64,000 bases of DNA from Bacteroidota bacterium (GCA_023251835.1 JAHEXZ010000020.1:3694-67693), one strand, 5' to 3'; counted from the stretch's first letter, positions 10,930-54,312 are shown. Numbers and translations: made by a program. The notes: generated by a model from the sequence alone, not told the origin.

Positions 10930-11003
10930 CTTCTTTTAGGGATTATACCGAAATAAAAACGGGTTTTTCATTCTGGCAAGTGGGTAAAACCGTTGGATAC
11001 ATA

Positions 11004-11411
11004 TTAAAAATCCCGATGATCTTTAACATACTCAGTAATATAATCCACAATCTCTTTCGTATCTGTTCCCGGAGGAAACAGCTTACCAACGCCCTGTTTA
11101 CTAAGGTTTTCCATATCTTTAGCGGGAATAATTCCGCCACCTGTAAGAAGTACATCATTCAACCCTTTTTCTTTCATAAGGGTTATTATCTTAGGAAAAA
11201 CTGTATTATGTGCGCCCGAAAGGATGCTAACCCCAACAACGTCAACATCCTCTTGCAAAGCAGTATTTACAACCATTTCAGGAGTTTGGCGGAGTCCGGT
11301 ATAAATTACTTCCATACCTGCATCTCTTAAGAAAGAAGCAATAACTTTTGCACCGCGGTCATGCCCGTCAAGTCCCACTTTGGCAATTAAAACTCGTATT
11401 GGTCGGTTCAT
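11004..11411 (-). CDS. Cobalamin (B12)-binding domain protein, methylmalonyl-CoA mutase small-subunit type
   Basis: 135 aa. [34 protein letters not shown]...[13 protein letters not shown] contains the D-x-H-x-x-G B12-binding motif. Confidence 0.85.
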
Positions 11412-11434
11412 AAATAATAATTTTTAATCTTTTT

Positions 11435-11478
11435 ACGAATATACTAAAACGAATAACGAATTTTAACGAATAACGAAT
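11435..11478 (-). promoter_or_regulatory. Array of five ACGAAT (coding strand ATTCGT) heptamer-like repeats upstream of the B12-binding gene
   Basis: ACGAAT occurs at 11435, 11449, 11456, 11466 and 11473 (aacgaat aacgaat ttt aacgaat aacgaat), 24-67 nt upstream of the start at 11411. Confidence 0.4.
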
Positions 11479-11521
11479 AAATATTCAAATGACAATCGGA
11501 TTAATTTGACCGAACTACCAA

Positions 11522-15232: not shown

Positions 15233-15261
15233 TGCTAAAAAAATTTTTATTCGTGTACCTT

Positions 15262-15438
15262 AGTATAGTTTTCAAAATAACTTCCTCAATCCACGCACAT
15301 ATTTCGACAAGCTCAATATGACTCGCGCGCGGTCAGTCAGAGCTAGTTTACCCTGAGCGAAGTCGAAGGGAAGACTGTGGGTAGCAATTTGAAAACGAAT
15401 CATATTTCTTTTGTTGAAGTTATTCTGAAAACTTTACT
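15262..15438. mobile_element. MITE-like 177-bp inverted-repeat element, copy A
   Basis: Same length as 21506-21682 with 6 mismatches and no indels. Imperfect terminal inverted repeats (the copy-A ends differ from the 23-nt agtaaagttttcaaaataacttc TIR of copy B at one position each). No coding capacity. Confidence 0.7.
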
Positions 15439-15439
15439 T

Positions 15440-15602
15440 AGCGCCTGTTTAAAATTTATTTAATTTTATCGCTATGCCTCTTTGAGGCTGCAACTTCGTT
15501 GGATTTTTTAGCCAGAATTGCTCCACTATAGCTGCAAAATCTTCCGCATTTGACGGGATCAAAAATACACTTAATTCATAAAATAAAATTTAAACAGGCG
15601 CT
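15440..15602. repeat. 163-bp segment bounded by a 14-bp perfect inverted repeat (agcgcctgtttaaa / tttaaacaggcgct)
   Basis: Arms at 15440-15453 and 15589-15602, immediately next to MITE copy A. Contains an internal small hairpin gcctctttgaggc. Single copy in the window. Confidence 0.45.
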
Positions 15603-15770
15603 TATAACTATAGTTTTGTAAATATATTATGCTTTATTGATTTTTGTAAGCTCCGCACATAAAAATACAATGGAAGGATTTTGAACATTTCTATAAACAT
15701 AGAGTTCCTTCGGAGTTCAACAAAAATGCTGAAATTTATACCGTTCAATGTAGAATAAAAAACACTAAAA

Positions 15771-16169
15771 ATGATAAACCATATAAAATATATTGAAACC
15801 ATACTTTATGTCAGCAATCAACAAGAAAGCTGTATATTTTATCAAAATATTTTTCGTAATCCCCCTGATTTGAATGTTCCCGGGATGACAGAGTTTATTA
15901 TAGCTGATAATTGCAAGATTGGTTTAATGCCAAATAAAGGAATTGCAAATATACTTGCTGATAAAACCCCACATCCTGACAGTGGGAGTGGTATTCCAAG
16001 ATGCGAACTCTATTTTTATGTTGATAATATTCAGTTTGAATTTGAAAATGCAATAAAAAGCGGAGCAAAATTAATAAGCCCTATCAGTGAAAGAGATTGG
16101 GGTGATAAAGCATGTTATTTTTCAGATAATGACGGACATATTATAGCGTTTGCGGAAAAAATAAAATAA
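15771..16169 (+). CDS. VOC (glyoxalase/bleomycin-resistance) family protein
   Basis: 132 aa. Size and the pattern IETILYVSNQQES..FY......ISERDWGDKACYFSDNDGHIIAFAE are typical of VOC fold proteins. Confidence 0.7.
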   Translation: MINHIKYIETILYVSNQQESCIFYQNIFRNPPDLNVPGMTEFIIADNCKIGLMPNKGIANILADKTPHPDSGSGIPRCELYFYVDNIQFEFENAIKSGAKLISPISERDWGDKACYFSDNDGHIIAFAEKIK

Positions 16170-16209
16170 GTCGATCATAAAAGCAAACCAGAACCTTAAC
16201 TATCACTAT

Positions 16210-17178
16210 TTATAACGACAGAATCTCCAGCATTCGCAACAGATCAGGATCCAGGCGTTGTGTATGTTTTACAGCATTTTCAAACGGAGTATAGGCAATC
16301 TTTTTATTTATAATGCCAACCATAACCCCTGTTTTACCTGCCATTAATGCTTCAACAGCGGCAAATCCCATACGGCTGCTGTTTACACGATCCATTGCTG
16401 TAGGATTCCCGCCACGTTGTATGTGGCCAAGAACGGTTACACGTGTATCAAAATCGGGTAACTGTTTCTTTACCTTTTCTGCAATGGCAAATGCATCTCC
16501 GGCTTCATCACCTTCAGCAACAATAATAATTTTAGATGATTTATTTTTACGGCCGCCCTTCAAACGTTTAATAAGATCTTCAACATCGGTTTTTGTTTCG
16601 GGCATCAAAATACATTCAGCGCCAACTCCAATACCCGAACGCAATGCAATAAGTCCGGCATCACGTCCCATCACTTCAACAAAAAATAAACGATCATGAC
16701 TTTCGGCTGTATCACGTATTTTATCTACTGCCTCAACAACAGTATTTATAGCTGTATCATAACCTATGGTAAAATCAGTGCCAATCAAGTCATTGTCAAT
16801 GGTTCCGGGACAGCCAACCATAGGAACGGAACAAATTTTGCTAAACTCCAAAGCGCCTCTGAAGGTACCATCACCACCAATTACAACAAGTCCATCAATA
16901 GCATGTTTCAGTATATTTTCAAGTGCCTTTTGTTGGCCATCGATAGTAAGAAACTTTTTACTGCGTGCAGTTTTTAAAATTGTCCCCCCCCTGTGAATAA
17001 TATTGGCCACGGACTTGGCGCCCAAAGGAATAAATTCGTTGCCTATCATTCCACTATAACCGTGCATAATTCCCATTACCTCAATATTGTTATAAGTAGC
17101 AGTACGCACTACTGCACGCATACATGCATTCATCCCCGGTGAATCACCGCCCGAAGTTAAAACAGCAATTTTTTTCAT
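16210..17178 (-). CDS. pfkA: ATP-dependent 6-phosphofructokinase
   Basis: 322 aa; motifs LTSGGDSPGMNA, VIGGDGT, PGTIDND, MGRDAG and LGHIQRGG. Confidence 0.95.
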   Translation of the reverse strand: MKKIAVLTSGGDSPGMNACMRAVVRTATYNNIEVMGIMHGYSGMIGNEFIPLGAKSVANIIHRGGTILKTARSKKFLTIDGQQKALENILKHAIDGLVVIGGDGTFRGALEFSKICSVPMVGCPGTIDNDLIGTDFTIGYDTAINTVVEAVDKIRDTAESHDRLFFVEVMGRDAGLIALRSGIGVGAECILMPETKTDVEDLIKRLKGGRKNKSSKIIIVAEGDEAGDAFAIAEKVKKQLPDFDTRVTVLGHIQRGGNPTAMDRVNSSRMGFAAVEALMAGKTGVMVGIINKKIAYTPFENAVKHTQRLDPDLLRMLEILSL

Positions 17179-21745: not shown

Positions 21746-22717
21746 ATGACAGTTAATGAAATAAAAGCTCCCATATCAGGTGAAATGGCAGAGTTTGAAC
21801 TGAAGTTTAAAGCTTCAATGAAAAGTGCTGTTCCCCTGCTTAATAAAATTATACATTATATTGTTAAACGCAAAGGCAAACAAATGCGCCCAATGTTTGT
21901 CTTTTTATCAGCAAAAGTATGTGGTGAAATGAATGAATCAAGCTACCGTGCCGCAGCATTGATAGAACTCTTACATACAGCTACATTGGTGCATGATGAT
22001 GTGGTAGACGACTCCAATGAACGAAGAGGTTTCTTTTCTGTAAATGCACTCTGGAAAAATAAAATTGCAGTATTAGTGGGTGATTTTTTATTGTCCAGAG
22101 GCCTTTTATTGTCTATCGATAATGGGGATTTTCATCTGTTAAGTATCGTATCCAATGCTGTAAAGGAAATGAGTGAAGGAGAATTATTACAAATTGAAAA
22201 AGCACGCAGATTAGACATTGATGAAGCTGTTTATTTTGATATTATCCGTAAAAAAACGGCTTCACTCATAGCTTCCTGCTGTGCATGTGGTGCCGCTTCA
22301 GTTACCACAGATAAACAAGTGATTGAAAGAATGCGAACATTTGGTGAAGCTGTCGGAATTGCTTTTCAAATAAAAGATGACCTGTTTGATTATGGCGATG
22401 GAACTAACATTGGCAAACCAACAGGTATTGACATCAAAGAAAAGAAAATGACATTACCATTGATCTATGCATTGAATAATGCTTCTTTCTTGGGCAAACG
22501 CAGGATTATAAATATTGTAAAAAACAATAATAATGATCCTAAGAAAGTTGCTGAAGTAATTGATTTTGTTATAAAAAGCGGTGGCATACAGTATGCAGAA
22601 AATAAAATGAATGAATTTAAACAGAAAGCACTAACCCTATTGTCCACTTTTACTGATTGCCCTTCCAGAACTTCATTGGAAGGCTTGGTTAGATATACTA
22701 CCGAAAGGAAGAATTAA
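21746..22717 (+). CDS. Polyprenyl diphosphate synthase (long-chain, IspB-like)
   Basis: 323 aa. First DDxxD in LVHDDVVDD and second in FQIKDDLFDY. Confidence 0.9.
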   Translation: MTVNEIKAPISGEMAEFELKFKASMKSAVPLLNKIIHYIVKRKGKQMRPMFVFLSAKVCGEMNESSYRAAALIELLHTATLVHDDVVDDSNERRGFFSVNALWKNKIAVLVGDFLLSRGLLLSIDNGDFHLLSIVSNAVKEMSEGELLQIEKARRLDIDEAVYFDIIRKKTASLIASCCACGAASVTTDKQVIERMRTFGEAVGIAFQIKDDLFDYGDGTNIGKPTGIDIKEKKMTLPLIYALNNASFLGKRRIINIVKNNNNDPKKVAEVIDFVIKSGGIQYAENKMNEFKQKALTLLSTFTDCPSRTSLEGLVRYTTERKN

Positions 22718-37900: not shown

Positions 37901-39001
37901 ATGAAAACAGATCACATAAATCAATTCTACGAGATATTATGTAAAGAACATCTTTGTTTTATATATCAGGGTGATTTTAGTGACGATATTACTGAAAAAA
38001 TCATCAGCCTGAGTGAGTATTCTATTGATAACAATAATCAGGTGATGGCAAAGATGAAAAATAAAATATCGTTTCTTATTGTAGAATGTTTTCAAAATAT
38101 TGTCAGACATGGAAATTCCGCTCCTCATGATATTAATAGAACATTAACCCTTCCCAGTTTGTTTTCTGCCAGAAGCACCAATGATTGTGTATATATAACT
38201 TCGGCTAATTTGATTGAGAATGAGCAAATTCCATTATTACAGGAAAAGCTCGAAAAACTTAATAGTTTAGATAAAGAAAAAATTAAAGCGTTATACATGG
38301 AGATACTTTCCAATAACCAGCTGTCTGAAAAAGGGGGGGCGGGTTTGGGTTTGGTGGAAATGGCAAGAAAATCAGGGAATCCGATTGAGTATGGCTTTGA
38401 AAATGAGAATGACAAACTTTCTCTTTTTTATCTTATGTTGAAGATGAAAGAGAAGGGTATTGTGAAGATAGAAGACAATATTTCTCTTGGAAGCGTGAAA
38501 CAGATGCACGATATAATGCGCAGAGAGCATATCTTGTTAGTCTATAAAGGTGACTTTTCCCAGGAAACAATTATTCCTTTATTGAAAATGATAGAGGATA
38601 ATTTGAATAAACATCAGGAGGAATATAATATAAAAAAGAAGCTGTATCTGATTCTTGTTGAGGTATTGCAAAACGTTTCCAAACATTCTATGGATAGAAA
38701 TGGGAAGAGAGAAGCGATATTTATGATAGGGAAGAGAGGCCAAAAATATAATATTTGTACAGGTAATACAGTAGACAAGTATTCAGCTGAAAGGTTAAAA
38801 GATAAAATTAATACGGTAAATGCGTTAAATAAGGAAGAACTGACCAATTACTATAAAACAACATTAAAGTATGGTACTGCTTCTGAAAAAGGTGCCGGCC
38901 TTGGTATAATAGATGTAGCAAAAGAGAGCAGTGATAAGTTGGTATATGATTTACAATCTGAGGGTGAAAATTTTTTCTTTTCATTGAATGTTAGTGTGTA
39001 A
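37901..39001 (+). CDS. SiaB-like (RsbW/SpoIIAB-type GHKL) protein kinase, tandem-duplicated
   Basis: 366 aa made of two homologous halves. Each has (I/V)Y(Q/K)GDFS, an N-box E(C/V)(F/L)QN(I/V).(R/K)H, SEKG(G)AGLG(L/I) and a terminal FF(Y/S)L. The pattern matches P. aeruginosa SiaB as I recall it. Confidence 0.7.
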   Translation: MKTDHINQFYEILCKEHLCFIYQGDFSDDITEKIISLSEYSIDNNNQVMAKMKNKISFLIVECFQNIVRHGNSAPHDINRTLTLPSLFSARSTNDCVYITSANLIENEQIPLLQEKLEKLNSLDKEKIKALYMEILSNNQLSEKGGAGLGLVEMARKSGNPIEYGFENENDKLSLFYLMLKMKEKGIVKIEDNISLGSVKQMHDIMRREHILLVYKGDFSQETIIPLLKMIEDNLNKHQEEYNIKKKLYLILVEVLQNVSKHSMDRNGKREAIFMIGKRGQKYNICTGNTVDKYSAERLKDKINTVNALNKEELTNYYKTTLKYGTASEKGAGLGIIDVAKESSDKLVYDLQSEGENFFFSLNVSV

Positions 39002-39083
39002 GTGATAATAGAATGTTTTAATTTTTATAAAATAAAGCACAAACGTTTGTGCCAATATTTTTAAAGCATATTGATAAATAATT

Positions 39084-39461
39084 ATGGAAAATCTTTTGGT
39101 TATAGAAGAAACTCAGGATACTCCTAAAATAGTTTTTGATAAGAATAAAGGGATTTTTGAAATTTCAGGAAGGTCATTGCCTGAAAATGCTATCAAATTT
39201 TATACGCCAGTATTAAAATGGCTGGAAGATTATATTGTGGCTCCCAATCCAACTACATGCTTTGAATTTAAACTTGATTATTTTAACTCTGCTTCTACAA
39301 AAAAGATTTTTGAAATTATAACAATTTTAGGAAAATTAACTCCATCTAATTCATCCGTAGTTATAAAATGGTATTATAGCAAGGATGATGAATTAATAAA
39401 GACTAAAGGAACAGAGATGCAGGAAATGTTTGAGATTCCTTTTGAAGTGAGGACCTATTAG
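39084..39461 (+). CDS. DUF1987 / SiaC-family regulatory phosphoprotein
   Basis: 125 aa. TQDTPKIVFDKNKGIFEISGRSLPENAIKFYTPVLKWLEDY...LDYFNSASTKKIFEI...IKWYY follows the SiaC pattern (TP.I...G.S.PEN...F...W...Y, phospho-loop N-T/S-S-S). Confidence 0.8.
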   Translation: MENLLVIEETQDTPKIVFDKNKGIFEISGRSLPENAIKFYTPVLKWLEDYIVAPNPTTCFEFKLDYFNSASTKKIFEIITILGKLTPSNSSVVIKWYYSKDDELIKTKGTEMQEMFEIPFEVRTY

Positions 39462-39474
39462 TTTCCGGTTTGAT

Positions 39475-41766
39475 TTATAATTTTATTCCCAGTACTAAAA
39501 TGTCATCTGTTTGTGTTACCGCTTCCTTCCAATTTTGATGGGCAGATGCTATAATTTGTTTTTGTTCCTGCATGGTTAAATGTTGGTTATTTAGTAACAG
39601 ATCAGTAAATTGCTGCGTACCAAACTTTTTTCTGTTTTTACTTCCAAACTGATCCATATAACCGTCAGTAAAAATATACATATTCATACCTTCTTTTATT
39701 GTGATAGTATGATTAGTATATTCAACCTCTGAACTGTTTTTCTTTCTTGAAATACCTCCGATTGTTTGCCTGTCGGCATTGATAATGGTTGTTTCATTTC
39801 CTGTTATAATGTACAAAGGGTTTTGTGCACCTGCGTATTGTAGTTGTTTATTTTTAAAGTCAATACAGCATAAGGCAATATCCATTCCATCCCCTGATAG
39901 TGCTCCATTTTTTTCCTGATGCAATGCTTCATATACACCTATATGCAGCAGGCGAAGTATTTCGGAAGGTTTAGTAACGTGTTTTTCATTAACAATTTGA
40001 TTTAGTAAAGTATTTCCAATCATGCTCATAAAAGCTCCCGGAACCCCATGCCCGGTACAATCAACAGCAGCAATGATTAGTTGGTGCCCGATAGCTATCG
40101 GGTTGGGAGCCGGGAGTTCGGAACCGGAAGCCGGTACCCGATAGCTATCGGGTTGAGAGCCGGAAAACCAGTAAAAATCACCACTGACAATATCTTTGGG
40201 TTGAAAATAGATAAATGAGTTCGGAAGCATTTTCTGTATTTCTTTTTCCTCTATCAGGATGCTTTGCTGGATATGCTGTGCATAGTTTATGCTATCAACT
40301 ATTTTTTCTTTTTGCTTTTCTATTATCGCTTTTTGTTTTTGTGTAAGCCTCCATCTGTTGAACATAAAACCAGCAAAAACAAGAACAATTATTAAGAAAC
40401 AGGAAATGAGTATCAGTATTACTTTTTGTTTTTCTTTTTCTTCCCGGGCAATAGCATCTGCTTTTTCTTGTTCAGCTTTTTGTGTTGCTTGTTTTGTTTC
40501 AAATTCAAAATTCATTTCAGAACGAACGGATTTCTTTGTGTTCTCTTCATTGTAGATGCTGTCTCTTGCTGTTATATATTTTTTGTAATGTTCCAGAGCC
40601 TTTTCGGGCTGGTTGGTTTTCTCATATAATTCGCTCATAGAATTTTCAATTGCTGCTATATAGCCTAAAGCGCCAACCGTATCAGCAAGTATTCGTGCTT
40701 TTTGTAAATATAGTTCTGCTTCTTTGAATTTTTTTAATGAAATATAAAGTGAACCCATGTTACAGAGATTTAGGGTAATTCCGTCTTTATCCCCCAATTC
40801 TTCTGAAATTTCTAATGCTTTGGAATAATAATCAAATGCATTTCTGTACAATGAGTCACTGGCTGCAAAATCATGTTCAAGTTCCGCAGCTCTTGCCTGT
40901 TTATCATAAGCTGTTCCTATGTTAGTGTAGGTGAGTGTAATCCCGCTTCTATTTCCCTGTTCCTCTGCAATTTTCAATGCTTTAAAATAATAGTCCAATG
41001 CTTTACTATAATTGCCTTGCTCGGAATAAACACCTCCAATGTTACTGATATGAGGAGCTATCATGCTTTTATCATTCAATTCATTAGCAATTTTCAACCC
41101 TTTAAAATAATAGTCCAATGCCTTAGCATAATCTTTCTGATTAGAATAGATAAGCCCTATGTTGCCCAGATGGCGGCATATCCCTGCCTTGTTTCCCAGC
41201 TCTTCGTCTATCTTTAATGCTTTAAAGTGATAATTTAAGGCTTGTGGATAATTTCCCTGATGGTCATAAACATTTCCAATGTTTCCAAGCGTTGCAGCGG
41301 TTCTTTCTTTATTATTCAGTGATTCTCTTATTTTGAGTGCTTTGAAAAAGAAGTCAAGTGAAAGCGGGTAATTGCCTTTGAAATAATAAAATACTCCAAG
41401 CTCATGACAGGCTATTGCAATTAGTCGTTGTTGTAGTTTATGCTGTTCATCGGATGAGGCAGATAATTTCTCTGCAATTTTTAATGCCTGTTTACTAAGA
41501 ATAATGGCAGTGTCCGGGTTGATATTTTTCAGTTCCCAGGCAAGTGCATTAAGGGTATTAACACGCGTTGTATCAATCCCGATTCCGGCACTCTCTCCTT
41601 CAATTGTTGGAGTGAATTCTGAAGAAGAAATTGTGTTAAATTTATTAAGGACAGAACGTAATGAATCTATTTTGTTTATAACTTCCTGCGGTTGGGCGAA
41701 ACTGCAGAAGGAAGCACAAATAAAAATAATATAAGCCAGTAAGTACTTTATTTTTTTATTTATCAT
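39475..41766 (-). CDS. Sensor phosphatase paralog 1: signal peptide + TPR repeats + TM + coiled coil + PP2C/SpoIIE
   Basis: 763 aa. Repeated LG(N)IG.VY..QGNY..AL.YY.KALKI.EELG TPRs, TM VILILISCFLIIVLVFAGFMF, and PP2C motifs DCTGHGVPGAFMS, DGMD, FTDGYMDQFG and DDILVLGIKL. Confidence 0.85.
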   Translation of the reverse strand: MINKKIKYLLAYIIFICASFCSFAQPQEVINKIDSLRSVLNKFNTISSSEFTPTIEGESAGIGIDTTRVNTLNALAWELKNINPDTAIILSKQALKIAEKLSASSDEQHKLQQRLIAIACHELGVFYYFKGNYPLSLDFFFKALKIRESLNNKERTAATLGNIGNVYDHQGNYPQALNYHFKALKIDEELGNKAGICRHLGNIGLIYSNQKDYAKALDYYFKGLKIANELNDKSMIAPHISNIGGVYSEQGNYSKALDYYFKALKIAEEQGNRSGITLTYTNIGTAYDKQARAAELEHDFAASDSLYRNAFDYYSKALEISEELGDKDGITLNLCNMGSLYISLKKFKEAELYLQKARILADTVGALGYIAAIENSMSELYEKTNQPEKALEHYKKYITARDSIYNEENTKKSVRSEMNFEFETKQATQKAEQEKADAIAREEKEKQKVILILISCFLIIVLVFAGFMFNRWRLTQKQKAIIEKQKEKIVDSINYAQHIQQSILIEEKEIQKMLPNSFIYFQPKDIVSGDFYWFSGSQPDSYRVPASGSELPAPNPIAIGHQLIIAAVDCTGHGVPGAFMSMIGNTLLNQIVNEKHVTKPSEILRLLHIGVYEALHQEKNGALSGDGMDIALCCIDFKNKQLQYAGAQNPLYIITGNETTIINADRQTIGGISRKKNSSEVEYTNHTITIKEGMNMYIFTDGYMDQFGSKNRKKFGTQQFTDLLLNNQHLTMQEQKQIIASAHQNWKEAVTQTDDILVLGIKL
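40087..40163. repeat. GC-rich insertion inside the PP2C paralog 1 CDS: two 27-nt direct repeats, each containing the perfect 16-nt palindrome cccgatagctatcggg
   Basis: cccgatagctatcgggttgggagccgg (40087-40113) and cccgatagctatcgggttgagagccgg (40137-40163), separated by 23 nt. Encodes GSQPDSYRVPASGSELPAPNPIAIGHQL, where the paralogs have 6 aa. Confidence 0.85.
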
Positions 41767-41858
41767 TTTTTAATACTATAAATTCTAATTTGCTTCTGGT
41801 AAAATAGTGATTTATTAATTTATGATGCCATTGTTATATCAATTATTTTACGTAAATA

Positions 41859-44162
41859 TTATAATTTTATTCCGACTACTAAAATATCATCTGTTTGCTC
41901 CGTAATTTTTTTCCAGTTTTGATGAGCGGATACAATAATTGATTTTTGTTCCTGCATGGTTAAATGCTGATTGTTAATTAGTAATTCTTTAAACTGATTT
42001 GTGCCCAATTTTTTATTATCAATTCCTCCATACTGATCAATATACCCGTCAGTAAAAAGATAAATGTTCATATCTTTCTTTATCGTAATGATATGGTTGG
42101 TATATTTTGTCTGAAGTGGGGTTTTCTTTCGTGACATTAATCCATTACTTCCAATTGTTTGCTTATCGGCCTTTACTACTTCAAGAGTATTACCAATTAT
42201 TATATACAAAGGATTCCGTGCACCGGCATATTCAATCGATTGATTTTGCAAGTCGATGCTGCATAGCGAAATGTCCAAACCATCACGTGCTAAAGCACTA
42301 TCTTTTTCCTGGTGCAATGCTTCATATATTCCTATATTAAGCAGGTACAAAATTTCGGAGGGTGTGGTAATATACTTTTCATTTACAATCTGGTTAAGCA
42401 GCGTATTGCCAATCATGCTCATGAATGCTCCCGGTACTCCATGCCCGGTACAGTCAATTGCTGCAATAATAATTTTATTATTTATTTTGGAAAACCAATA
42501 AAAATCACCACTGACAATATCTTTCGGTTGGTAATAAATAAATGAATCAGGAAAAAATTTTTGAATTTCACTTTCATCCGTTAAAATACTTTGTTGAATA
42601 CGTTGTGCATAATTTATACTATCAATAATCTTCTCATGCTGTTGCTCTATAAGTGTATTTTTTTTTATTAGTTCATCATTTTTATTACTAAGAGTTATAT
42701 TTAACTTTTGTTTTGTAACATAACGGTTGTATAGTATCAGGGCAAACAAAATGGCAATGGTTAGTCCTATACTAAATCCATTTCGAGTGAATTTTTGCCT
42801 GTTAAGCCCGGCCTGTTGTAATGCTTTATCTTTTGTAAGCAATTCAATATCGTTTTCTTTTTTCTGGGATTCGTATTTTGCACCCATTTCCATTATCTGC
42901 TTATTTGATAGCTCATTAAACAAGGTGTCCTTAATGTCAGAGTGAAGCGTGTAGTATATGTATGCCAGTTTATAATCTCCTGTTTTTTCGTATAATTCAG
43001 ATAGTGAAGAATAGGTATCTTTAATACCATCTTTATAGCCCATCTTTTTATACCGTATTAAAGCTTGATTGAGGTTATAAAGCGCGTCCCTGAATTTGTT
43101 TTGTTTCAGATATATTTCTCCGATACCAAAGTATGCATCTGTTACCGCTATTTTATATCCTATTTTCTCACCTATTTTCAGAGAATTCAAATAGTTATGT
43201 AATGCTTCGTTATACGTGCCCTGATGAGAATATGCAATGCCTATATTGCCATATCCTCTGGCTATTCCAAAGCTATCCTTAATTTCTTCAACTATCTCCA
43301 TATATTTTGTATAATTCTTAATGGCATTTTCATAATCAGCCTGTTTTTCATAAACATCTCCTATACCATTATAAGCGCTGGATATTCCACTTTTATATTC
43401 TATAGCTTCACTGATTTTCAGCTGATTTAAGAATGCTTCCGATGCTTTTCTATAGTTGTGCTGATATAAGTATACATAACCAATGTCATAATAAGAGTCA
43501 GCAACTCCTTTTGTATTGCCATTGGTTTCACTGATATCCGCAGCTTTTAAGTAATTATCTAATGCTTTTTCATGGTTACCCATATACCAGTATATATTTC
43601 CTATATAACTATATGTATCAGCCATTCCTTCTTTATTTTTTCTTTCCTGACTTATTTTAATGGATTTCTGGAAATTGTCCAGAGCCATTTCATATTTATC
43701 CTGATAATAGTAAACCAATCCAATATATCTGTATGACTTTTCCATACCTTCCTTATTATTCAGTTCTATGTTAAGTGTTAAAGCCAACTGATAATATTTT
43801 ACAGCAGTTTCATAAATATACTGTCTTTCGAACGTGTCACCAATATTGTTTAAGGCTCGTACTAATTCTTTTTTGAGGTTACTGTTTCGTGATAAATTTT
43901 CTGCTTTTTGTAAATAGTTTAATGCTTTTTTATGCTGATTCAGGCGATTATATTCAGACCCTAACTCAATTAAAGAGTTTATAAGCGCTCTTTTTTTCTC
44001 TGAGTCAGATTCGGAAGTATCATTGATTGCTTTTGTTATATTGTTTAATAGGGAATCTATAGTTTTGTTATTTTCTTCTGTATTTTTCTGTGATTGAGCC
44101 TTCGCTGAATGAAGGCAGAAGATGGAAATAAATAAGAGGATATATCTAATGTTTTTTTGCAT
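41859..44162 (-). CDS. Sensor phosphatase paralog 2: signal peptide + TPR + TM + PP2C/SpoIIE
   Basis: 767 aa with the same architecture and near-identical PP2C motifs (IDCTGHGVPGAFMSMIGNTLLNQIVNEK, FTDGYIDQYGG, DDILVVGIKL). Confidence 0.85.
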   Translation of the reverse strand: MQKNIRYILLFISIFCLHSAKAQSQKNTEENNKTIDSLLNNITKAINDTSESDSEKKRALINSLIELGSEYNRLNQHKKALNYLQKAENLSRNSNLKKELVRALNNIGDTFERQYIYETAVKYYQLALTLNIELNNKEGMEKSYRYIGLVYYYQDKYEMALDNFQKSIKISQERKNKEGMADTYSYIGNIYWYMGNHEKALDNYLKAADISETNGNTKGVADSYYDIGYVYLYQHNYRKASEAFLNQLKISEAIEYKSGISSAYNGIGDVYEKQADYENAIKNYTKYMEIVEEIKDSFGIARGYGNIGIAYSHQGTYNEALHNYLNSLKIGEKIGYKIAVTDAYFGIGEIYLKQNKFRDALYNLNQALIRYKKMGYKDGIKDTYSSLSELYEKTGDYKLAYIYYTLHSDIKDTLFNELSNKQIMEMGAKYESQKKENDIELLTKDKALQQAGLNRQKFTRNGFSIGLTIAILFALILYNRYVTKQKLNITLSNKNDELIKKNTLIEQQHEKIIDSINYAQRIQQSILTDESEIQKFFPDSFIYYQPKDIVSGDFYWFSKINNKIIIAAIDCTGHGVPGAFMSMIGNTLLNQIVNEKYITTPSEILYLLNIGIYEALHQEKDSALARDGLDISLCSIDLQNQSIEYAGARNPLYIIIGNTLEVVKADKQTIGSNGLMSRKKTPLQTKYTNHIITIKKDMNIYLFTDGYIDQYGGIDNKKLGTNQFKELLINNQHLTMQEQKSIIVSAHQNWKKITEQTDDILVVGIKL

Positions 44163-44181
44163 TTGAAAAAAGATGAAAGAA

Positions 44182-46272
44182 TTATTTAATTTTTACACCC
44201 ACTACAAGAATATCGTCTATCTGTACGGTATTTCCCTTCCATTCCTCATGTGCTTTAATTATTATATTTCCTTGCTCCTCCATATTCAGTTCCTGGCTAC
44301 TAAGTAGCAGCTCTTGAAATTTGCCAAGACTAAACTTTTTTCTTTTTTTACCACCAAATTGATCCGGGTATCCGTCAGTAAAAAGATAAATGCTCATATT
44401 GGGAGTTATTGGAAAAGTATGATTGGTGTAGTTAACTTTAAGTGAGCCTGTTGGTTTTATCAAAAATTGTCTTCCACCGATTGTATAAATATCTGCCTTT
44501 ATTATTGTAAGCTGGTTATTAGCTATTATATATAATGGCTGCTGTGCACCAGAATACTCTATTCGGTTATTCTCATAATCAATACAGCAGATGGATATAT
44601 CCATTCCATCATCTGATATTGGTTTTTCTTTATTCTGGTTTAAAATGTCATATATTCCATTATTCAAATGGTTTAGTATTTCGGATGGAGTTGTAATATG
44701 CTTTTGTTTTATAATCTGATTTAAAAGCGTGTTGCCTATTATACTCATAAATGCTCCGGGTACACCATGTCCTGTACAATCAGTAACGACCAATATAATT
44801 TTGCCATTTATTTTTGAACACCAGTAAAAATCGCCACTTACAATGTCTTTAGGCTGATAATAAGTAAAAGAATCGGGCAAAAGTTTTTGTACCTCCTGTT
44901 CTTCAATAACAATCTTTTGTTGCATCAGTCTTGCATAAACAAGGCTGTTTACAATTTTTTCCTGTTGTTTTTCAATAAGTATATTTTTCTGCAGCAAATC
45001 TTTATTTGTAATATCCAACTGTATATTTAATTTTCTTTTGACAGTAAAACGGTTAAACAATATAAAGATTAAAAGTAAGACCAGAATTAACCCTCCAATG
45101 AAACCATATAAAACAAATTTTTGTCTGTCCATTTCACTCTGTTGGAGTGCTTTGTCTTTCTTTAATAATTCTATATCTTTTTCTTTTTTTTCGGTTTCAT
45201 ATCTTGTATTTAGTTCTGTTATATGGTTATTTGCTTTTTCACTAAGCAATGAATCTTTAAGTTTCCGGAATAGTTTATGGTATTCTAACGCCTGTTGATA
45301 GTTCCCTCTTTTTTTTAATGCATCTGAGAGCAGGTATGCTCCACTTTTTAAGGCTTCTAACTCTTTTGTTTTTTCAGCCGTTTTAACTCCATGAGTGAGA
45401 AAACCGATAGCTTCATCGAGTCGGTTTTGTATAAGACGCATTTCTCCTATTGAAATTAATACACTGGCAGATCTGGCAGATTCCAGATCTTTTCCAAATG
45501 GTCTTTCATTAAAACATTTTTCGGCTGCTGTAAAGTATTCTTGTTTGCCGGTTTGTTTTGCCCAATCAAGATATATTTCTCCAAGACTTATCTGTGCAAG
45601 ATCCACACCATTAGGGTCTTTGCGGGCAGCATATTCAATTCGTGCTTCTTTAAGATAGTTAATAGCTTTTTGATACTGTTTTAGTCCAAGATAGGCAGTA
45701 TGGATATTGAGTAAAGAGTGGGTTATATTCTCCTTATCCTTTTTACGCAGCTCTAAAGCGTGAAGATGGTATTCAAGCGCCTTTCCATAATCAGATTTTT
45801 TTCCGGAAAGTTCGGCCATGCGAGAATACACATTACCGATATTGTTCAGGCTGTTAGCGATATTTGTTCGGTCGTTAATTTCTTCGGCTACTTTTAAGGA
45901 TGCCAAATAATATTCAATAGCTTTCTCATACAACCATTTATGATAATATATATTTCCAATTTTCCTCAATGAAACAGAAATAAATATTTTTTTATTTGTT
46001 TTATTGGCCGCCTCTGCTGCCTGTAATGCATATTGCAATGCATTTTCATAGTCAAACAGTGAGTGCGAATATAGGTCGGATATGGTAAATAAGATTTTTA
46101 CTTTTACAGTGTCCTTACTATTATAATCATTTGTGGGAAGGGATTTTAAAGCATGGAGTAGAGAATCGATGGTTTTGAGTGAAGATGTTTGTGCTGCTTG
46201 TTGAGCATATACAACATGGCTGCCAAGTATTATAAAGAGATAAGCGACAAATTTTTTTTTCATCTTTCCCAT
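44182..46272 (-). CDS. Sensor phosphatase paralog 3: signal peptide + TPR + TM + PP2C/SpoIIE
   Basis: 696 aa with the same architecture (TDCTGHGVPGAFMSIIGNTLLNQIIKQK, FTDGYPDQFGG, DDILVVGVKI). Only 19 nt upstream of paralog 2, so likely co-transcribed. Confidence 0.85.
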   Translation of the reverse strand: MGKMKKKFVAYLFIILGSHVVYAQQAAQTSSLKTIDSLLHALKSLPTNDYNSKDTVKVKILFTISDLYSHSLFDYENALQYALQAAEAANKTNKKIFISVSLRKIGNIYYHKWLYEKAIEYYLASLKVAEEINDRTNIANSLNNIGNVYSRMAELSGKKSDYGKALEYHLHALELRKKDKENITHSLLNIHTAYLGLKQYQKAINYLKEARIEYAARKDPNGVDLAQISLGEIYLDWAKQTGKQEYFTAAEKCFNERPFGKDLESARSASVLISIGEMRLIQNRLDEAIGFLTHGVKTAEKTKELEALKSGAYLLSDALKKRGNYQQALEYHKLFRKLKDSLLSEKANNHITELNTRYETEKKEKDIELLKKDKALQQSEMDRQKFVLYGFIGGLILVLLLIFILFNRFTVKRKLNIQLDITNKDLLQKNILIEKQQEKIVNSLVYARLMQQKIVIEEQEVQKLLPDSFTYYQPKDIVSGDFYWCSKINGKIILVVTDCTGHGVPGAFMSIIGNTLLNQIIKQKHITTPSEILNHLNNGIYDILNQNKEKPISDDGMDISICCIDYENNRIEYSGAQQPLYIIANNQLTIIKADIYTIGGRQFLIKPTGSLKVNYTNHTFPITPNMSIYLFTDGYPDQFGGKKRKKFSLGKFQELLLSSQELNMEEQGNIIIKAHEEWKGNTVQIDDILVVGVKIK

Positions 46273-46668
46273 TTATTTACTGAACATGTTGAGTGTTTTT
46301 GTTCTTTCCGGAATATATCAGACACGAACAAGAACAGGCTTTTTTATGTGCTATTACAATAATAGGAAAAATTACCTTTTAAAAAACAAGTCTTCATTAA
46401 GCAGTGTAAATTTCCGTATTTTGTTTGAGACTCCTACGGAGTTTTATTTCCAGATATACTGAGCGAATGAGTTTGCTGTTTTTTGTAAACTCATTCAGTC
46501 GAAGTATCGCTATCAGGAGAAAAAGTTGCGCTGGATAATTATACAATTTTTATTGTATGATTTGAGTAAAAACAATCCAATAAACAATTAAATTTGAATT
46601 CAGTTTAAAGTTCCAGGTAAGATGGAAGTAGAAAATCCGGGTTGAAATTAGTTGGTAAAATTATTTTT

Positions 46669-47538
46669 ATGAAGGTAAGTGGTTTTACAATTGTCAGGAA
46701 TGCAATTAAGTATGATTATCCCATTGTGGAAGCTATTTCCTCTATTTTGCCAATCTGTGATGAACTAATTGTTGCTGTTGGGAAATCAGATGACGACACA
46801 TTAAATTTGATACAAAGCATTGCATCTGATAAAATAAAAATTATTGAAACCATTTGGGATGACTCTTTACGTGAAGGAGGGTATGTGTTGGCGATTGAGA
46901 CCAACAAAGCATTTGCAGCTATTTCTCCGGATAGTGATTGGGCGTTTTATATTCAGGGTGATGAAATTGTGCATGAGAAGTATTTACCGGAAATAAAAGA
47001 AGCAATGCAAAAACATAAGGATAACAAATTGGTTGAAGGTTTGTTGTTTAACTATACACACTTTTATGGTTCATATGATTATGTTGGAGATTCTAAGCAC
47101 TGGTACAGGAAAGAAATACGAGTAATAAGAAATAATAAAAAAATTTCATCGTATAAAGATGCTCAGGGATTTCGTAAGGATGGACAGAAGTTAAAAGTAA
47201 AAGAAATTAATGCTTTTATCTATCATTATGGATGGGTAAAGCCTCCAAAAGCTCAACAGGCCAAACAGGAAACATTTCACAAATTTTGGCATGATGATAC
47301 CTGGATGAAGGAAAATATTCCGCAGGTTGATCAGTTTGATTACTCAGCAATTGATTCGCTTACCCACTTTACAGGCCTGCATCCGCTTGTTATGCAGGAG
47401 CGTATTAAAAAAATGAACTGGAAGTTTTCATTTGACCCTACACAAAAAAACTTATCTTTAAAAGATAAGTTTTTACGATTAATAGAAAAAAAACTGGGAT
47501 GGAGAATAGGTGAATATAAAAATTACAAAATAATTTAA
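46669..47538 (+). CDS. Glycosyltransferase family 2-like protein
   Basis: The ATG at 46669 (MKVSGFTIVRNAIKYDYPIVEAISSILPICDELIVAVGKSDDDT) fits a family common in Bacteroidota. The track's TTG start at 46642 is less likely. Confidence 0.55.
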   Translation: MKVSGFTIVRNAIKYDYPIVEAISSILPICDELIVAVGKSDDDTLNLIQSIASDKIKIIETIWDDSLREGGYVLAIETNKAFAAISPDSDWAFYIQGDEIVHEKYLPEIKEAMQKHKDNKLVEGLLFNYTHFYGSYDYVGDSKHWYRKEIRVIRNNKKISSYKDAQGFRKDGQKLKVKEINAFIYHYGWVKPPKAQQAKQETFHKFWHDDTWMKENIPQVDQFDYSAIDSLTHFTGLHPLVMQERIKKMNWKFSFDPTQKNLSLKDKFLRLIEKKLGWRIGEYKNYKII

Positions 47539-47539
47539 A

Positions 47540-48964
47540 ATGGGGTTACGAACATTGTTTTTGCTTCTATTCTGTGCTATTACCTTATTTTCCTGCACAC
47601 CAGATGGTAGTTCAGATACTAAAAAATCTGATACAGAAAAAAATTCAACTATTGTAGAAGAAAGATTTAAGACCGGACAGGTTATTGAAAATGTTATTTG
47701 CAAAACCGATCCTTCACAAAATTATACGCTGTATTTGCCAAGCACGTATTTGGCAGAAAAAAAATTTCCGGTAATATATGCTTTTGACCCCCATGCTTCC
47801 GGAAAACTACCTGTAACACTTTATAAAGAATTGGCAGAGCAATATAATTACATTATTATTGGTTCTAATAATTCTAAAAATGGTAATTCCTGGGAAGAAT
47901 CCCAGACTATTGCTGCTAAATTATTTGCTGATGCCGGAAGCCGGCTTTCAATAGACCCACAGCGGATTTATTTACTGGGATTTTCTGGTGGAGCGCGTGT
48001 GGCTAACACTTTGACAATAGTTAATGGTGCTATTAATAGCGTTATCTGTTGTGGTGCTGCTGCTCCTGTTGCAAACAGTAGTAGTCCGCGTAACAACTAT
48101 TGCTTTATGGGAATAACAGGAAACGAAGATTTTAATTATATAGAAATGAAAAAGTATGACATGGTTGATCTTGCAGGGCATAATATTAAACATACTTTAA
48201 TTACATTCAGTGGTAAGCATGAATGGCCTTCTAAAGCTATTATGGATGAGGCTTTCTGGTGGTTAGAGTTGAATGAGATGAGAAAAAATAGTGCTTCAAA
48301 AAATGAAAAATTAATTGCAGAACACTTGCAGCCATTATCAGATAGATTAGCAGTCTACAATAAGAAAAAGCAGGTTGTTGAGGCGTACAACTTATGTCGT
48401 AAAATAATTAATTTTTATGATGGTATAACCGATCTGTCATCCTGTTATGAAACATATAAAACAATAAAATTATCTCCGGAAATAGATAAGGCATTAAAAC
48501 AGGAAGAAAGAGACTGGAGTGAAGAAGAAGCTCTAAAAAAGCAGTATATAAGTGCTTTCCAAACCCAAAATCTTGCCTGGTGGAATAAAGATATTGCAGC
48601 CTTGAACAAAAAAATTAAGACAGGAAAAGATACCAGTAAAGTATTAATTTATAAGCGTGTTCTTAGTTTTTTAAGTTTGGTGGCTTATATGCAGACAAGT
48701 GGTGCTTTAAAGCAAAATGCTTTTCCTGCTGCTGAGCTTTATAGTAAAATTTATTTATTGGTTGACCCTACAAATAGTGAAGCGCATTATCTGGCAGCCT
48801 CTGTTGAGGCCATAAAGGGAAATCAAAATGGGTCGTTATCTTTTTTAAAAAAAGCTATTGAAAATGGGTTTGAGGATAGTCTCCGTTTAAAAAATGACAC
48901 AATATTCAATGGCATACGCAATACAAAAGAATTTGATGAAATGATAAAGGGGATTGCTTACTAA
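47540..48964 (+). CDS. Alpha/beta-hydrolase (esterase/depolymerase-like) lipoprotein with helical C-terminal domain
   Basis: 474 aa with lipobox LFSC. YLPSTY...FPVIYAFDPH...IYLLGFSGGARVA contains the G-x-S-x-G nucleophile elbow. The C-terminus is TPR-like. Confidence 0.6.
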   Translation: MGLRTLFLLLFCAITLFSCTPDGSSDTKKSDTEKNSTIVEERFKTGQVIENVICKTDPSQNYTLYLPSTYLAEKKFPVIYAFDPHASGKLPVTLYKELAEQYNYIIIGSNNSKNGNSWEESQTIAAKLFADAGSRLSIDPQRIYLLGFSGGARVANTLTIVNGAINSVICCGAAAPVANSSSPRNNYCFMGITGNEDFNYIEMKKYDMVDLAGHNIKHTLITFSGKHEWPSKAIMDEAFWWLELNEMRKNSASKNEKLIAEHLQPLSDRLAVYNKKKQVVEAYNLCRKIINFYDGITDLSSCYETYKTIKLSPEIDKALKQEERDWSEEEALKKQYISAFQTQNLAWWNKDIAALNKKIKTGKDTSKVLIYKRVLSFLSLVAYMQTSGALKQNAFPAAELYSKIYLLVDPTNSEAHYLAASVEAIKGNQNGSLSFLKKAIENGFEDSLRLKNDTIFNGIRNTKEFDEMIKGIAY

Positions 48965-49229: not shown

Positions 49230-49691
49230 TTATTTATTTGGAAAAAATGTAAGAGGATTCACAATTGGAATCATTGCTCCTTCAATAGGAGTGCCCTGAG
49301 ATTTATCTATTAAAAAACCTCTGGTAGTGGAGATTAGAACACCAATAAAATTTGCAAAAACTATATTAGGAATTTTGCCCTCTGATTGTTTTATAATTTC
49401 AGTGAGATTAAAAACAATAAAAATACCATGCGAATTAATATAACCGACTTTATTTTTTTTTTCTAAATCCGAAAACATGTTAATGTTCAAATTTACATTA
49501 ATTTCATTTTTAGGCATGTTAACGCCCATGTTTACATTAAACTCATATTGGAAATGTTCTACATTAATTTTTGAATCTGTTATAACAGATTTTTCCAATT
49601 GAAAGTCTGAAAATTTAATTTCACCTATCTTGGTTTGAATATTTAATTCTTTTATTGGTTCAATTGGCATATCAGTTGGCTTGACATTCAT
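49230..49691 (-). CDS. SecB-like chaperone candidate (third gene of a toxin-antitoxin-chaperone-like operon)
   Basis: 153 aa, the same size as SecB. VGYINSHGIFIVFNLTE...IPNIVFANFIGVLISTTRGFL...AMIPIVNPLTFF parallels E. coli SecB FLCEVQQAGIFSIAGIE...[20 protein letters not shown]...LAPVNFDALF, recalled from memory. Overlaps the upstream gene by 20 nt (alternative ATG at 49670). Confidence 0.45.
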   Translation of the reverse strand: MNVKPTDMPIEPIKELNIQTKIGEIKFSDFQLEKSVITDSKINVEHFQYEFNVNMGVNMPKNEINVNLNINMFSDLEKKNKVGYINSHGIFIVFNLTEIIKQSEGKIPNIVFANFIGVLISTTRGFLIDKSQGTPIEGAMIPIVNPLTFFPNK

Positions 49692-50124
49692 TTAACTTAA
49701 CAGCAGTATCTTGTGCAACACTTACTGAAACTATCTCAACTTCAAATGTCTTTCCTTTTTTGACATCTGTATATCTAAACTTGTTCGTAATTGGATAAAC
49801 TAAAATTGATTGTTCCCCTTCTTCATGTTTAAGAAAAGTAATGTAAATTTCTTGTTTGGCTTCATCTGCTGTATAAATTAATGGTACACCCAGTACGGCT
49901 TCAATTTTACCAATGGTTTTAAATGTAAAATTATGAGTGCCTCTTAACCATTTACTGATTTCAGATTCCTTCTTACCAAGCTTATCAGCAAGGTCTTTTT
50001 GAGTGATTCCACCTTTGTCAAGTATGTCAGTAATCAGCGATGCAATAGCCATTGACCTCCGCACCATACTTTTAATTTCAGGTGATACCGTTTTGGCTCT
50101 TTCTCTAATGCTGTTTTTCTTCAT
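49672..50124 (-). CDS. XRE-family helix-turn-helix protein (antitoxin candidate) with about 70-aa C-terminal extension
   Basis: 150 aa. ITQKDLADKLGKKESEISKWLRGTHNFTFKTIGKIEAVLG is a canonical XRE HTH. Confidence 0.8.
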   Translation of the reverse strand: MKKNSIRERAKTVSPEIKSMVRRSMAIASLITDILDKGGITQKDLADKLGKKESEISKWLRGTHNFTFKTIGKIEAVLGVPLIYTADEAKQEIYITFLKHEEGEQSILVYPITNKFRYTDVKKGKTFEVEIVSVSVAQDTAVKLNECQAN

Positions 50125-50136
50125 AATTTGTTTGTT

Positions 50137-50607
50137 TTATTCAGTTTCAATTGTAAATTCAAGATTCCCGAACAACTCACAATTGTATATATTTACTCCT
50201 TCGTCAAGCCTGCTTTGTAAATGCCTTACTACTTGATTAAGTACATCCCCGATTGGTTTTAAAAGTGGATTATTTTGCCATGAACCATCTGTTTTTTTAT
50301 CTCCATTTCCGATAATACAAATGCAATCACTTATTCGCAAACTGAAATGACGGAGTTTACCTCCGTCCAAAGGTAAAGCTTGTAATTTGCCTCCTTCTGG
50401 TCGGAAATATCTTTCCAATGCTCCTTTTTCAGAAATGATATTTAGCCATTCAATGATAATTTCAAAGTCTTTGTTGTATTCAGGAGTGCCATCAAATTTT
50501 TGACAAAATTTATCGTATTCGTTTTCCTGTTCATCAGTGAATCGCACTGTGTAGAAGGTAACGGCATCATATTTTTCAAATAATTCTATTATTATTCTGC
50601 GATTCAC
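50137..50607 (-). CDS. Toxin candidate (RelE/HigB-like conserved Bacteroidota family)
   Basis: 156 aa. ALERYFRPEGGKLQALPLDGGKLRHFSLRISDCICIIGNGDKKT matches a family I recall upstream of XRE genes (..ALERYFRPEG..LRLYCLRLSD.ILILGNGG.K). 12 nt upstream of the HTH gene. Confidence 0.4.
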   Translation of the reverse strand: MNRRIIIELFEKYDAVTFYTVRFTDEQENEYDKFCQKFDGTPEYNKDFEIIIEWLNIISEKGALERYFRPEGGKLQALPLDGGKLRHFSLRISDCICIIGNGDKKTDGSWQNNPLLKPIGDVLNQVVRHLQSRLDEGVNIYNCELFGNLEFTIETE

Positions 50608-53847: not shown

Positions 53848-54312
53848 ATGGGAAATATATTTTACCAGGATTTCAGGGACTTTCTGCAACTATTAAATGA
53901 TAATCAGGTTGATTATGTTTTAATAGGCGGTTATTCTGTTATATTCCATGGATATTCCCGGACAACTGGCGATATGGATATCTGGGTAAAAAGAGATACC
54001 GAGAATTATCAAAAGTTAAGAAAAACGTTCTTTCAATTTGGCATGGCGCTGTTTGATATGACCGAAGATAATTTTCTGAATCATCCTATCTGGGATGTTT
54101 TCTCTTTTGGTATTCCTCCTGTATGTATTGATATAATGGTTAAAGTAAAAGGTTTATCCTTTGAATCATGTTATCAGGAAGCTGAATTTTTTGATGATGA
54201 TGGTCTGAAAATAAGGGTAATAAGCTATAATCACCTGATCCGGGCAAAAGAAGAATCAAACCGGCCTAAAGATATTGATGATATTACTAACCTGGAAAAT
54301 AAAAAAAATTAA
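53848..54312 (+). CDS. Minimal nucleotidyltransferase-fold protein
   Basis: 154 aa. VDYVLIGGYSVIFHGYSRTTGDMDIWV is the G-G...G.x.R.T.D.D NTase signature, followed by RPKDIDDI. Confidence 0.65.
   Translation: MGNIFYQDFRDFLQLLNDNQVDYVLIGGYSVIFHGYSRTTGDMDIWVKRDTENYQKLRKTFFQFGMALFDMTEDNFLNHPIWDVFSFGIPPVCIDIMVKVKGLSFESCYQEAEFFDDDGLKIRVISYNHLIRAKEESNRPKDIDDITNLENKKN

Follow-up and report, generated by a model that had tools for sequence, protein, structure and literature searches.

A proposed Sia-type partner-switch module with a tandem SiaB-family kinase and multiple sensor phosphatases in a Bacteroidota bacterium

The DNA considered here is a stretch of 64,000 nt from a Bacteroidota bacterium (GCA_023251835.1 JAHEXZ010000020.1:3694-67693), referred to below as the window. 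Within it, five genes at 37901-46272 encode a tandem SiaB-family kinase, a SiaC-family (DUF1987) phosphoprotein and three sensor phosphatases of the PP2C/SpoIIE type. With moderate confidence, we read these genes as a complete Sia-type Ser/Thr partner switch that has a rewired input and an output other than cyclic diguanosine monophosphate (c-di-GMP) supplied by a linked cyclase. The system to compare is SiaABCD of Pseudomonas aeruginosa (PA0172-PA0169), a switch that governs biofilm formation. The module shares with it a membrane PP2C phosphatase (SiaA), a dimeric GHKL-type kinase (SiaB) and a DUF1987 phosphoprotein (SiaC) whose acceptor residue follows a conserved Asn at the N-terminal end of helix α2. 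The module differs in that it lacks a SiaD/GGDEF output, carries its kinase in tandem within one chain, has a predicted Ser rather than Thr acceptor, and has three or four phosphatases that bear TPR or β-propeller sensors in place of the SiaA sensor and do not belong to one operon with the other genes. None of the three kinds of protein reaches its NCBIfam equivalog cut-off. As a switch the module is conventional, and the question lies in its output. The features discussed are as follows.

37901-39001 (+), tandem SiaB-family Ser/Thr kinase, 366 aa (DUF6272 twice, NF038262, AlphaFold2 model); N-terminal half about residues 1-185 (nt 37901-38455), C-terminal half about residues 195-366 (nt 38483-39001)
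39037-39052 (no strand), palindromic hairpin GCACAAACGTTTGTGC with a T-rich run, in the kinase-siaC spacer (folding, relatives' spacers)
39084-39461 (+), SiaC-family (DUF1987) regulatory phosphoprotein, 125 aa (PF09345, SiaC alignment)
39475-41766 (-), sensor phosphatase 1, 763 aa: signal peptide, TPR array, transmembrane segment (about residues 450-470), linker, SiaA-like PP2C/SpoIIE domain
41859-44162 (-), sensor phosphatase 2, 767 aa, with the architecture of phosphatase 1
44182-46272 (-), sensor phosphatase 3, 696 aa, with the architecture of phosphatase 1 but a shorter TPR array
7276-10929 (-), probable fourth input phosphatase, 1,217 aa: lipoprotein-like signal, Reg_prop β-propellers, Y_Y_Y, transmembrane segment, SiaA-like PP2C domain

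A listing of open reading frames (ORFs) places the five module genes at precisely the coordinates claimed in a preliminary description of this DNA, and it agrees with the earlier account of kinase and siaC-like genes running convergently into three tandem phosphatase paralogs. The kinase and siaC genes are on the + strand and the phosphatase genes on the - strand, with the stops of the siaC-like and phosphatase 1 genes 13 bp apart, so there is no single co-directional siaA-B-C-D operon. The kinase and siaC genes are probably co-transcribed, judging from their shared strand and a gap of 82 bp that holds a hairpin.

The kinase was proposed earlier to consist of two SiaB-like halves, and the profile matches of 37901-39001 are strong. 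The protein contains PF19788/DUF6272 twice (Pfam, E 1e-65) and scores 263 bits against the NCBIfam model NF038262 (SiaB_fam_kinase; cut-off 85). Scored separately, the N-terminal half reaches 129 bits and the C-terminal half 145.5 bits, so that each passes the cut-off alone; the two are 26% identical to each other. Against the SiaB equivalog NF038264 (cut-off 225) the protein scores 126 bits, and by these profiles it is a member of the SiaB family, not a SiaB orthologue. The halves also show distant homology (33.6 and 25.3 bits) to the cyanobacterial slr1658-family regulators (NF047703), a family of poorly defined function whose cut-off of 100 lies far above these scores. The AlphaFold2 (AF2) model of the tandem kinase is confident, with a predicted local distance difference test score of 92 and a predicted template-modelling score of 0.91. 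In Foldseek searches its closest structure in the Protein Data Bank (PDB) is SiaB from the SiaB-SiaC complex (6KKO_A; template-modelling score 0.88, rmsd 2.2 Å), and each half superposes on SiaB at a score of 0.88.

Catalytic features are retained in both halves. Among the residues invariant in 81 tandem kinases are E62/N66 and E254/N258, the predicted catalytic Glu and N-box Asn of the two halves; in P. aeruginosa SiaB the catalytic Glu is E61 (PMC7647112). The Gly-rich ATP lid (GGAGLG, AGLGL) is at least 90% conserved in the N-terminal half and strongly conserved in the C-terminal half of the same set, and mean conservation is alike (0.49 vs 0.45). One half as a degenerate pseudokinase was therefore rejected, the motifs being kept in both and conservation being similar. 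Since the SiaB of P. aeruginosa acts in dimeric form (PMC7278518), the tandem kinase is read most simply as a covalently linked dimer. The structures ranked next after SiaB for each half are the anti-sigma kinases UsfX, SpoIIAB and RsbW (probability 1.0, template-modelling scores 0.6-0.75), and these matches favor a different, kinase-centred account. In that account the tandem SiaB protein would hold an unlinked target (a sigma factor or other regulator) in the manner of RsbW or SpoIIAB, SiaC would serve only to displace the target, and in a covalent heterodimer one half could become specialised for binding the target, as the SpoIIAB dimer binds one sigma-F asymmetrically. It is the main rival to the SiaC-centred switch, and we judge it unlikely. 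The similar conservation and intact motifs of the two halves give no sign of a pure binding half, and in the sole studied system it is SiaC that binds the output, while SiaB does not bind SiaD (PMC7278518).

The tandem arrangement is widespread. A phmmer search of 1.84 billion cluster representatives gave 3,188 matches, 353 of them at E<1e-30, and nearly all of the top 150 are full-length at 355-375 aa; a profile search of a 90%-identity database gave at least 2,765 tandem-kinase clusters at E<=1e-20. The kinase is thus duplicated in tandem, as had been noted, but the sequence clusters point to an established and conserved architecture and not to a local duplication. Named sources are mostly Bacteroidota, Bacteroidales or Marinilabiliales metagenome-assembled genomes (MAGs), in which the protein is labelled either "SiaB family protein kinase" or "hypothetical protein". 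Some members occur as fusions. Three of about 500 aa (P0189, P0199 and P0230) join the tandem kinase to SiaC, and P0146 (1,371 aa) combines a Reg_prop/Y_Y_Y sensor, SpoIIE and the tandem kinase in one chain, its sensor-PP2C part being of the kind encoded at 7276-10929. These fusions tie the kinase, SiaC and PP2C together functionally. One member, P0324, comes from a MAG labelled Thiohalospira, and at two loci (L092 and L093) a gene of equal size and spacing directly follows the tandem kinase and siaC, the L093 copy being a SrfB 'virulence factor' gene. On the basis of the Thiohalospira-labelled MAG and the two SrfB-linked loci, the family perhaps reaches beyond Bacteroidota.

Turning to the phosphoprotein, the 125-aa product was described earlier as DUF1987/SiaC-like with NSASTKK as a candidate phospho-loop, and homology supports both proposals. 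It matches PF09345 (SiaC) over residues 7-124 of 125 at 129 bits (gathering cut-off 24.5; E 7e-38) and aligns over 120 residues, with no gaps, with the P. aeruginosa SiaC structures 6K4F/6KKO at E 2e-12 (6K4F E 1.8e-12); its 83 bits against the SiaC equivalog NF038265 lie below the cut-off of 150. The peptides quoted earlier are present in the protein, with YFNSASTKK encoded at 39279-39305. In the gap-free alignment N68-S69-A70 (39285-39293) stand opposite N67-T68-S69 of P. aeruginosa SiaC, which is phosphorylated on Thr68 (PMC7647112). Across 38 aligned SiaC-like sequences N68 is invariant and position 69 is Ser in at least 90% and Thr otherwise. The predicted acceptor within the loop is therefore Ser69 (codon 39288-39290), which aligns with Thr68.

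The same alignment bears on the target. Under ordinary Sia logic, the SiaC-like protein would activate a GGDEF cyclase encoded elsewhere in the genome. The conserved N-S/T-S/A triad speaks for this, as the N67/T68/S69 triad of P. aeruginosa SiaC is used on the SiaD stalk and required for SiaD binding (PMC8457831). Against it, the other SiaD-contacting residues are not conserved: D79, R103 and D114, which make polar contacts with the SiaD stalk (PMC8457831), are replaced by T80, L104 and M115 in the window protein, and these replacements fit a target other than SiaD.

The three sensor phosphatases were correctly described as tandem paralogs with a signal peptide, TPR array, transmembrane segment and PP2C/SpoIIE domain. 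Pfam finds TPR repeats and a C-terminal SpoIIE domain (PF07228, E 1e-16 to 1e-20) in each, and hydropathy places a signal-peptide-like segment at the N-terminus and one strong transmembrane segment, near residue 450, 465 and 390 of phosphatases 1, 2 and 3 respectively, that separates the TPR array from the PP2C domain. The metal-binding Asp motifs SGDFYW, DCTGHG, DGMD, TDGY and TDDIL are invariant across the three. Among solved structures the PP2C domains have a single relative at E<=0.001, the SiaA PP2C domain 6K4E, which they match at E 1e-31. Against the SiaA equivalog NF038263 (cut-off 700) the paralogs fall below at 170-192 bits, with the match limited to the C-terminal 270 aa or so that include the PP2C domain; the full-length model also covers the SiaA sensor/HAMP region, in place of which the paralogs have a TPR array. 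Signal peptide, TPR array and single transmembrane segment are shared with other Bacteroidota sensors such as the histidine kinase FimS (NF053520; 70-142 bits against its TPR part), whereas the cytoplasmic output of the window proteins is a PP2C phosphatase and not a histidine kinase.

Sensor and catalytic parts of the paralogs have diverged to different degrees. Phosphatases 1 and 2 are 63-64% identical in the PP2C domain and 33% in the TPR region; phosphatase 3 is 53-58% identical to the other two in the PP2C domain and 27-37% in the TPR region, giving overall ranges of 53-64% and 27-37%. Among close relatives with the synteny of the window (M50 protease, DXR, M23, LuxE-like, DUF218, kinase, siaC), the number of TPR-PP2C genes is one, two or three. 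Together these values suggest a recent, lineage-specific expansion in which sensors diverged faster than catalytic domains, as input diversification would produce. The phosphatase input is thus indeed triplicated, as reported earlier, but the triplication belongs to one lineage and is not a general property of the module.

A further phosphatase, 27 kb from the module at 7276-10929, is a probable fourth input to the switch on the strength of its sequence. It contains Reg_prop, Y_Y_Y and SpoIIE domains (Pfam), its PP2C domain retains the metal-binding Asp residues and is 37-38% identical to those of the TPR paralogs (E 1e-61 to 1e-64), and its score against the SiaA model (169.6 bits) is in their range. 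In L100, a locus from a complete genome, a PAS-SpoIIE and a Reg_prop/Y_Y_Y-SpoIIE protein are encoded within 10 kb of the kinase-siaC pair. The fourth SiaA-like phosphatase, the P0146 fusion and L100 support a design in which many sensors feed one switch. Several phosphatases may likewise feed one phosphoprotein in Bacillus, as RsbU and RsbP do. The RsbU/RsbP-RsbV-RsbW and SpoIIE-SpoIIAA-SpoIIAB systems share the logic of PP2C, phosphoprotein and dimeric GHKL kinase; they differ from the window module, whose phosphoprotein is DUF1987 and not canonical STAS, whose kinase is of the DUF6272/SiaB and not the HATPase_c_2 RsbW family, and which has no linked sigma factor. Directly upstream of the fourth phosphatase, at 11522-15232 (-), lies a gene for a 1,236-aa HisKA/HATPase_c histidine kinase whose long N-terminal part is without Pfam annotation.

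The gene neighborhoods of relatives show which of these associations recur. A scan of genome contigs with a single sequence gave 10 loci, the best match among species representatives being 79% identical. In total 100 loci were collected (about 1.1 Mb; 1,075 ORFs), and their ORFs were called and searched with hidden Markov models built from the alignments of this analysis. They hold 84 non-redundant tandem kinases, 68 of which have at least 500 bp downstream, and 33 loci have at least 4 kb on both sides. The siaC gene lies directly downstream on the same strand in 51 of the 68, at a median gap of 2 bp and with two cases fused. At least one SpoIIE gene is found within three to four genes of the kinase in 17 of the 33 well-flanked loci, with only the window having three, and this adjacency recurs across kinases with identity as low as 30-40%. 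In L009 and L024-L026 siaC is followed by a gene for a soluble SpoIIE protein on its own strand.

From these parts a mechanism can be proposed. The three TPR sensor phosphatases, and the β-propeller/Y_Y_Y phosphatase, would probably sense different periplasmic cues, and an activated phosphatase would remove the phosphate from phospho-Ser69 of the SiaC-like protein. The tandem kinase, as a covalent SiaB dimer with both ATP sites kept, would rephosphorylate Ser69. The unphosphorylated SiaC-like protein would then be the signaling species, and the face around N68-S69-A70 would serve to bind and regulate a target whose gene lies elsewhere in the genome, presumably something other than a SiaD-type diguanylate cyclase. 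The direction of each phosphate transfer, the use of the TPR array as a periplasmic sensor and the choice of SiaC over the kinase as output carrier are inferred, as is the nature of the target.

The search for an output was negative near the module. The six frames of the window contain no GG[DE]EF motif; among the 1,075 ORFs of the 100 loci the only instance is a chance GGEEF in an M60 peptidase. Pfam gave no GGDEF, EAL, sigma-70, anti-sigma or STAS domain in 47 of the 52 window ORFs of at least 120 aa, and the Pfam-annotated neighborhoods of relatives contain no GGDEF or anti-sigma gene. Orthologous loci with a consistently adjacent diguanylate cyclase, which would have pointed to an ordinary Sia system, were not found. 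For the idea that the SiaC-like protein activates an unlinked cyclase, the survey has a scope of the window and the relatives' neighborhoods only, and zero GGDEF-motif ORFs in about 1.1 Mb around 100 family members count against it. To our knowledge, many Bacteroidota have few or no GGDEF proteins, which also counts against such a cyclase, and we consider it improbable.

The earlier statement that no GGDEF, anti-sigma or sigma gene lies nearby holds for the window and, with one qualification, for the roughly 100 loci: in four distant ones (L058, L065, L069 and L086) a 286-aa sigma-70 gene with regions 1.2-4 lies one to three genes from the tandem kinase. We take this protein to resemble the short primary/housekeeping sigma of Bacteroidota. 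Its proximity may be synteny by chance or may point to an output that involves a sigma factor. As a full-length sigma-70-type gene beside the kinase it lends weight to the kinase-centred account, against which stand the absence of a sigma gene from the window and more than 95% of loci and the possibility that the adjacency in four loci is chance.

Other recurrent neighbors were set aside as partners. LuxE-like, DUF218, M23 and DXR genes recur but reflect clade-level synteny around the window's close relatives, and a thioredoxin-like protein and the housekeeping-like sigma-70 recur without being broadly conserved. A polyprenyl synthetase gene follows siaC by 10-140 bp in seven distant loci (L034, L037, L041, L042, L044, L046 and L082); the window homologue is at 21746-22717, 16 kb upstream of the kinase, and the arrangement is probably ancestral synteny. 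Same-strand genes directly after siaC are heterogeneous (shikimate enzymes, EamA, SrfB, a TerB-ABC transporter, a TPR-PAS protein, LamB/YcsF).

Several observations weigh against the switch as proposed. Clustering of the 470 nearest non-module neighbors from the 100 loci gave no broadly conserved family and no candidate target, so that for its output half the model extrapolates from P. aeruginosa. No siaC was detected beside the tandem kinase in 17 of the 68 loci, whether through an ORF-calling artefact or in reality, and natural fusions of kinase and SiaC suit a SiaC that acts on the kinase somewhat better than one that leaves for a partner. Both the fusions and the kinases seemingly lacking an adjacent siaC favor the kinase-centred account. 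With regard to input, the phosphatase genes are convergent with the kinase-siaC pair and not in one operon with it, and about half of the well-flanked loci have no adjacent PP2C gene, including those of a close relative (L001-L003; 75% SiaC identity). These two points, along with a similar lack in L006, would fit a coincidental adjacency in which the TPR-PP2C proteins have other substrates (for example STAS proteins elsewhere) and the kinase and SiaC are served by another phosphatase. Such a coincidence is improbable in view of the fusions and the recurrence: a sensor, SpoIIE and the tandem kinase share one chain in P0146, SpoIIE adjacency extends to 17 of 33 loci and to distant kinases, soluble SpoIIE genes follow siaC in its own orientation, and SiaA is the sole solved relative of the PP2C domains.

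A broader interpretation of the partner switch is more speculative, and we hold it as a conjecture with somewhat less than even prospects. The tandem-SiaB/SiaC pair would be a widespread integrator, mostly of Bacteroidota, that receives TPR, β-propeller/Y_Y_Y and PAS phosphatase inputs and acts, through SiaC or the kinase, on a target class new to partner switches that is neither a sigma factor nor a c-di-GMP enzyme. The target might be the coiled-coil stalk of another signaling protein or a housekeeping machine encoded elsewhere. In the only published functional model SiaC activates an adjacent cyclase, and its authors proposed that DUF1987 proteins act as modulators of "adjacent proteins" (PMC8457831). 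For this family of at least 2,765 clusters no conserved neighbor emerged that could be such a target, and the model therefore cannot be carried over to it.

The module had been called an uncharacterised Bacteroidota version of the switch. For family assignment this is not so, as the GenBank pipeline automatically names the family "SiaB family protein kinase" and Pfam and NCBIfam capture its membership. For biology the description stands: full-text literature searches found work on Pseudomonas only, and neither DUF6272, nor SiaB/SiaC-like systems of Bacteroidota, nor DUF1987 proteins of other genera were the subject of any paper found. Four features appear to be undescribed, namely the double kinase in a single chain, the multiple TPR/β-propeller PP2C inputs, the Ser acceptor and the lack of a cyclase, and they run counter to the published expectation that DUF1987 proteins act on their neighbors. 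If the proposal is right, the DUF1987/SiaB switch is not intrinsically a c-di-GMP device. Bacteroidota have many SpoIIE/PP2C sensor phosphatases with largely unassigned substrates, and the SiaC-like protein is a concrete candidate substrate for at least the SiaA-like subset. Once found, the target would define a new partner-switch output in a phylum important to gut, marine and soil ecology, and the tandem kinase, as a natural single-chain form of a dimeric GHKL kinase, offers a useful means of asking whether both sites act equivalently.

Some minor features of the locus and its relatives may be added. The 82-bp kinase-siaC spacer is long for the family and folds at -11.6 kcal/mol; its hairpin at 39037-39052 is a perfect palindrome with a 6-bp stem and a T-rich run behind it. 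A role as weak attenuator or terminator is possible, and the hairpin might keep siaC expression below that of the kinase. The hairpin was not found in the spacers of nine related loci and is specific to the window, so a conserved regulatory element of the module was rejected.

Two relatives show variant modules. In L077, at 12427-16301 (-), a mirror of the window's architecture adjoins an ordinary tandem-kinase/SiaC/PP2C module on one contig: a 273-aa protein with two SiaC domains in tandem comes first, then a second SiaC (134 aa), a SiaB-like kinase with one domain (184 aa) and a SpoIIE phosphatase of 648 aa. In the Sporocytophaga MAGs of L017-L019, at about 8700-14000, genes for a CheR-type methyltransferase and a 1,006-aa TerB-ABC transporter fusion flank those of a single-domain SiaB (180 aa) and a SiaC (120 aa), all on one strand. 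This different setting may offer a candidate output for the single-domain subfamily.

Beyond the phosphatases, the genes at 46642-47538 (+; 298 aa) and 47540-48964 (+; 474 aa) are a pair kept in L004, L005, L010, L011 and L012. Neither has a Pfam match, and searches of the PDB gave only weak hints (GT2-like GmaR, E 0.019; esterases, E 0.018); the 474-aa protein is lipoprotein-like with a GFSGG esterase-like motif. At L005 (3606-8311) genes for a DnaB_C/AAA_25 ATPase, a reverse transcriptase (RVT_1) and a phage-type integrase take the place of the sequence upstream of the kinase, and a mobile element appears to have inserted beside the module. In the window itself, three packed ORFs of 153, 150 and 156 aa at 49230-50607 (-), the first two overlapping, include a middle one with an XRE-type HTH_3 domain and two others without a Pfam match, and a DUF6036 nucleotidyltransferase-like ORF lies at 53848-54312. 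These small ORFs and the DUF6036 ORF may represent toxin-antitoxin or defence-like cassettes.

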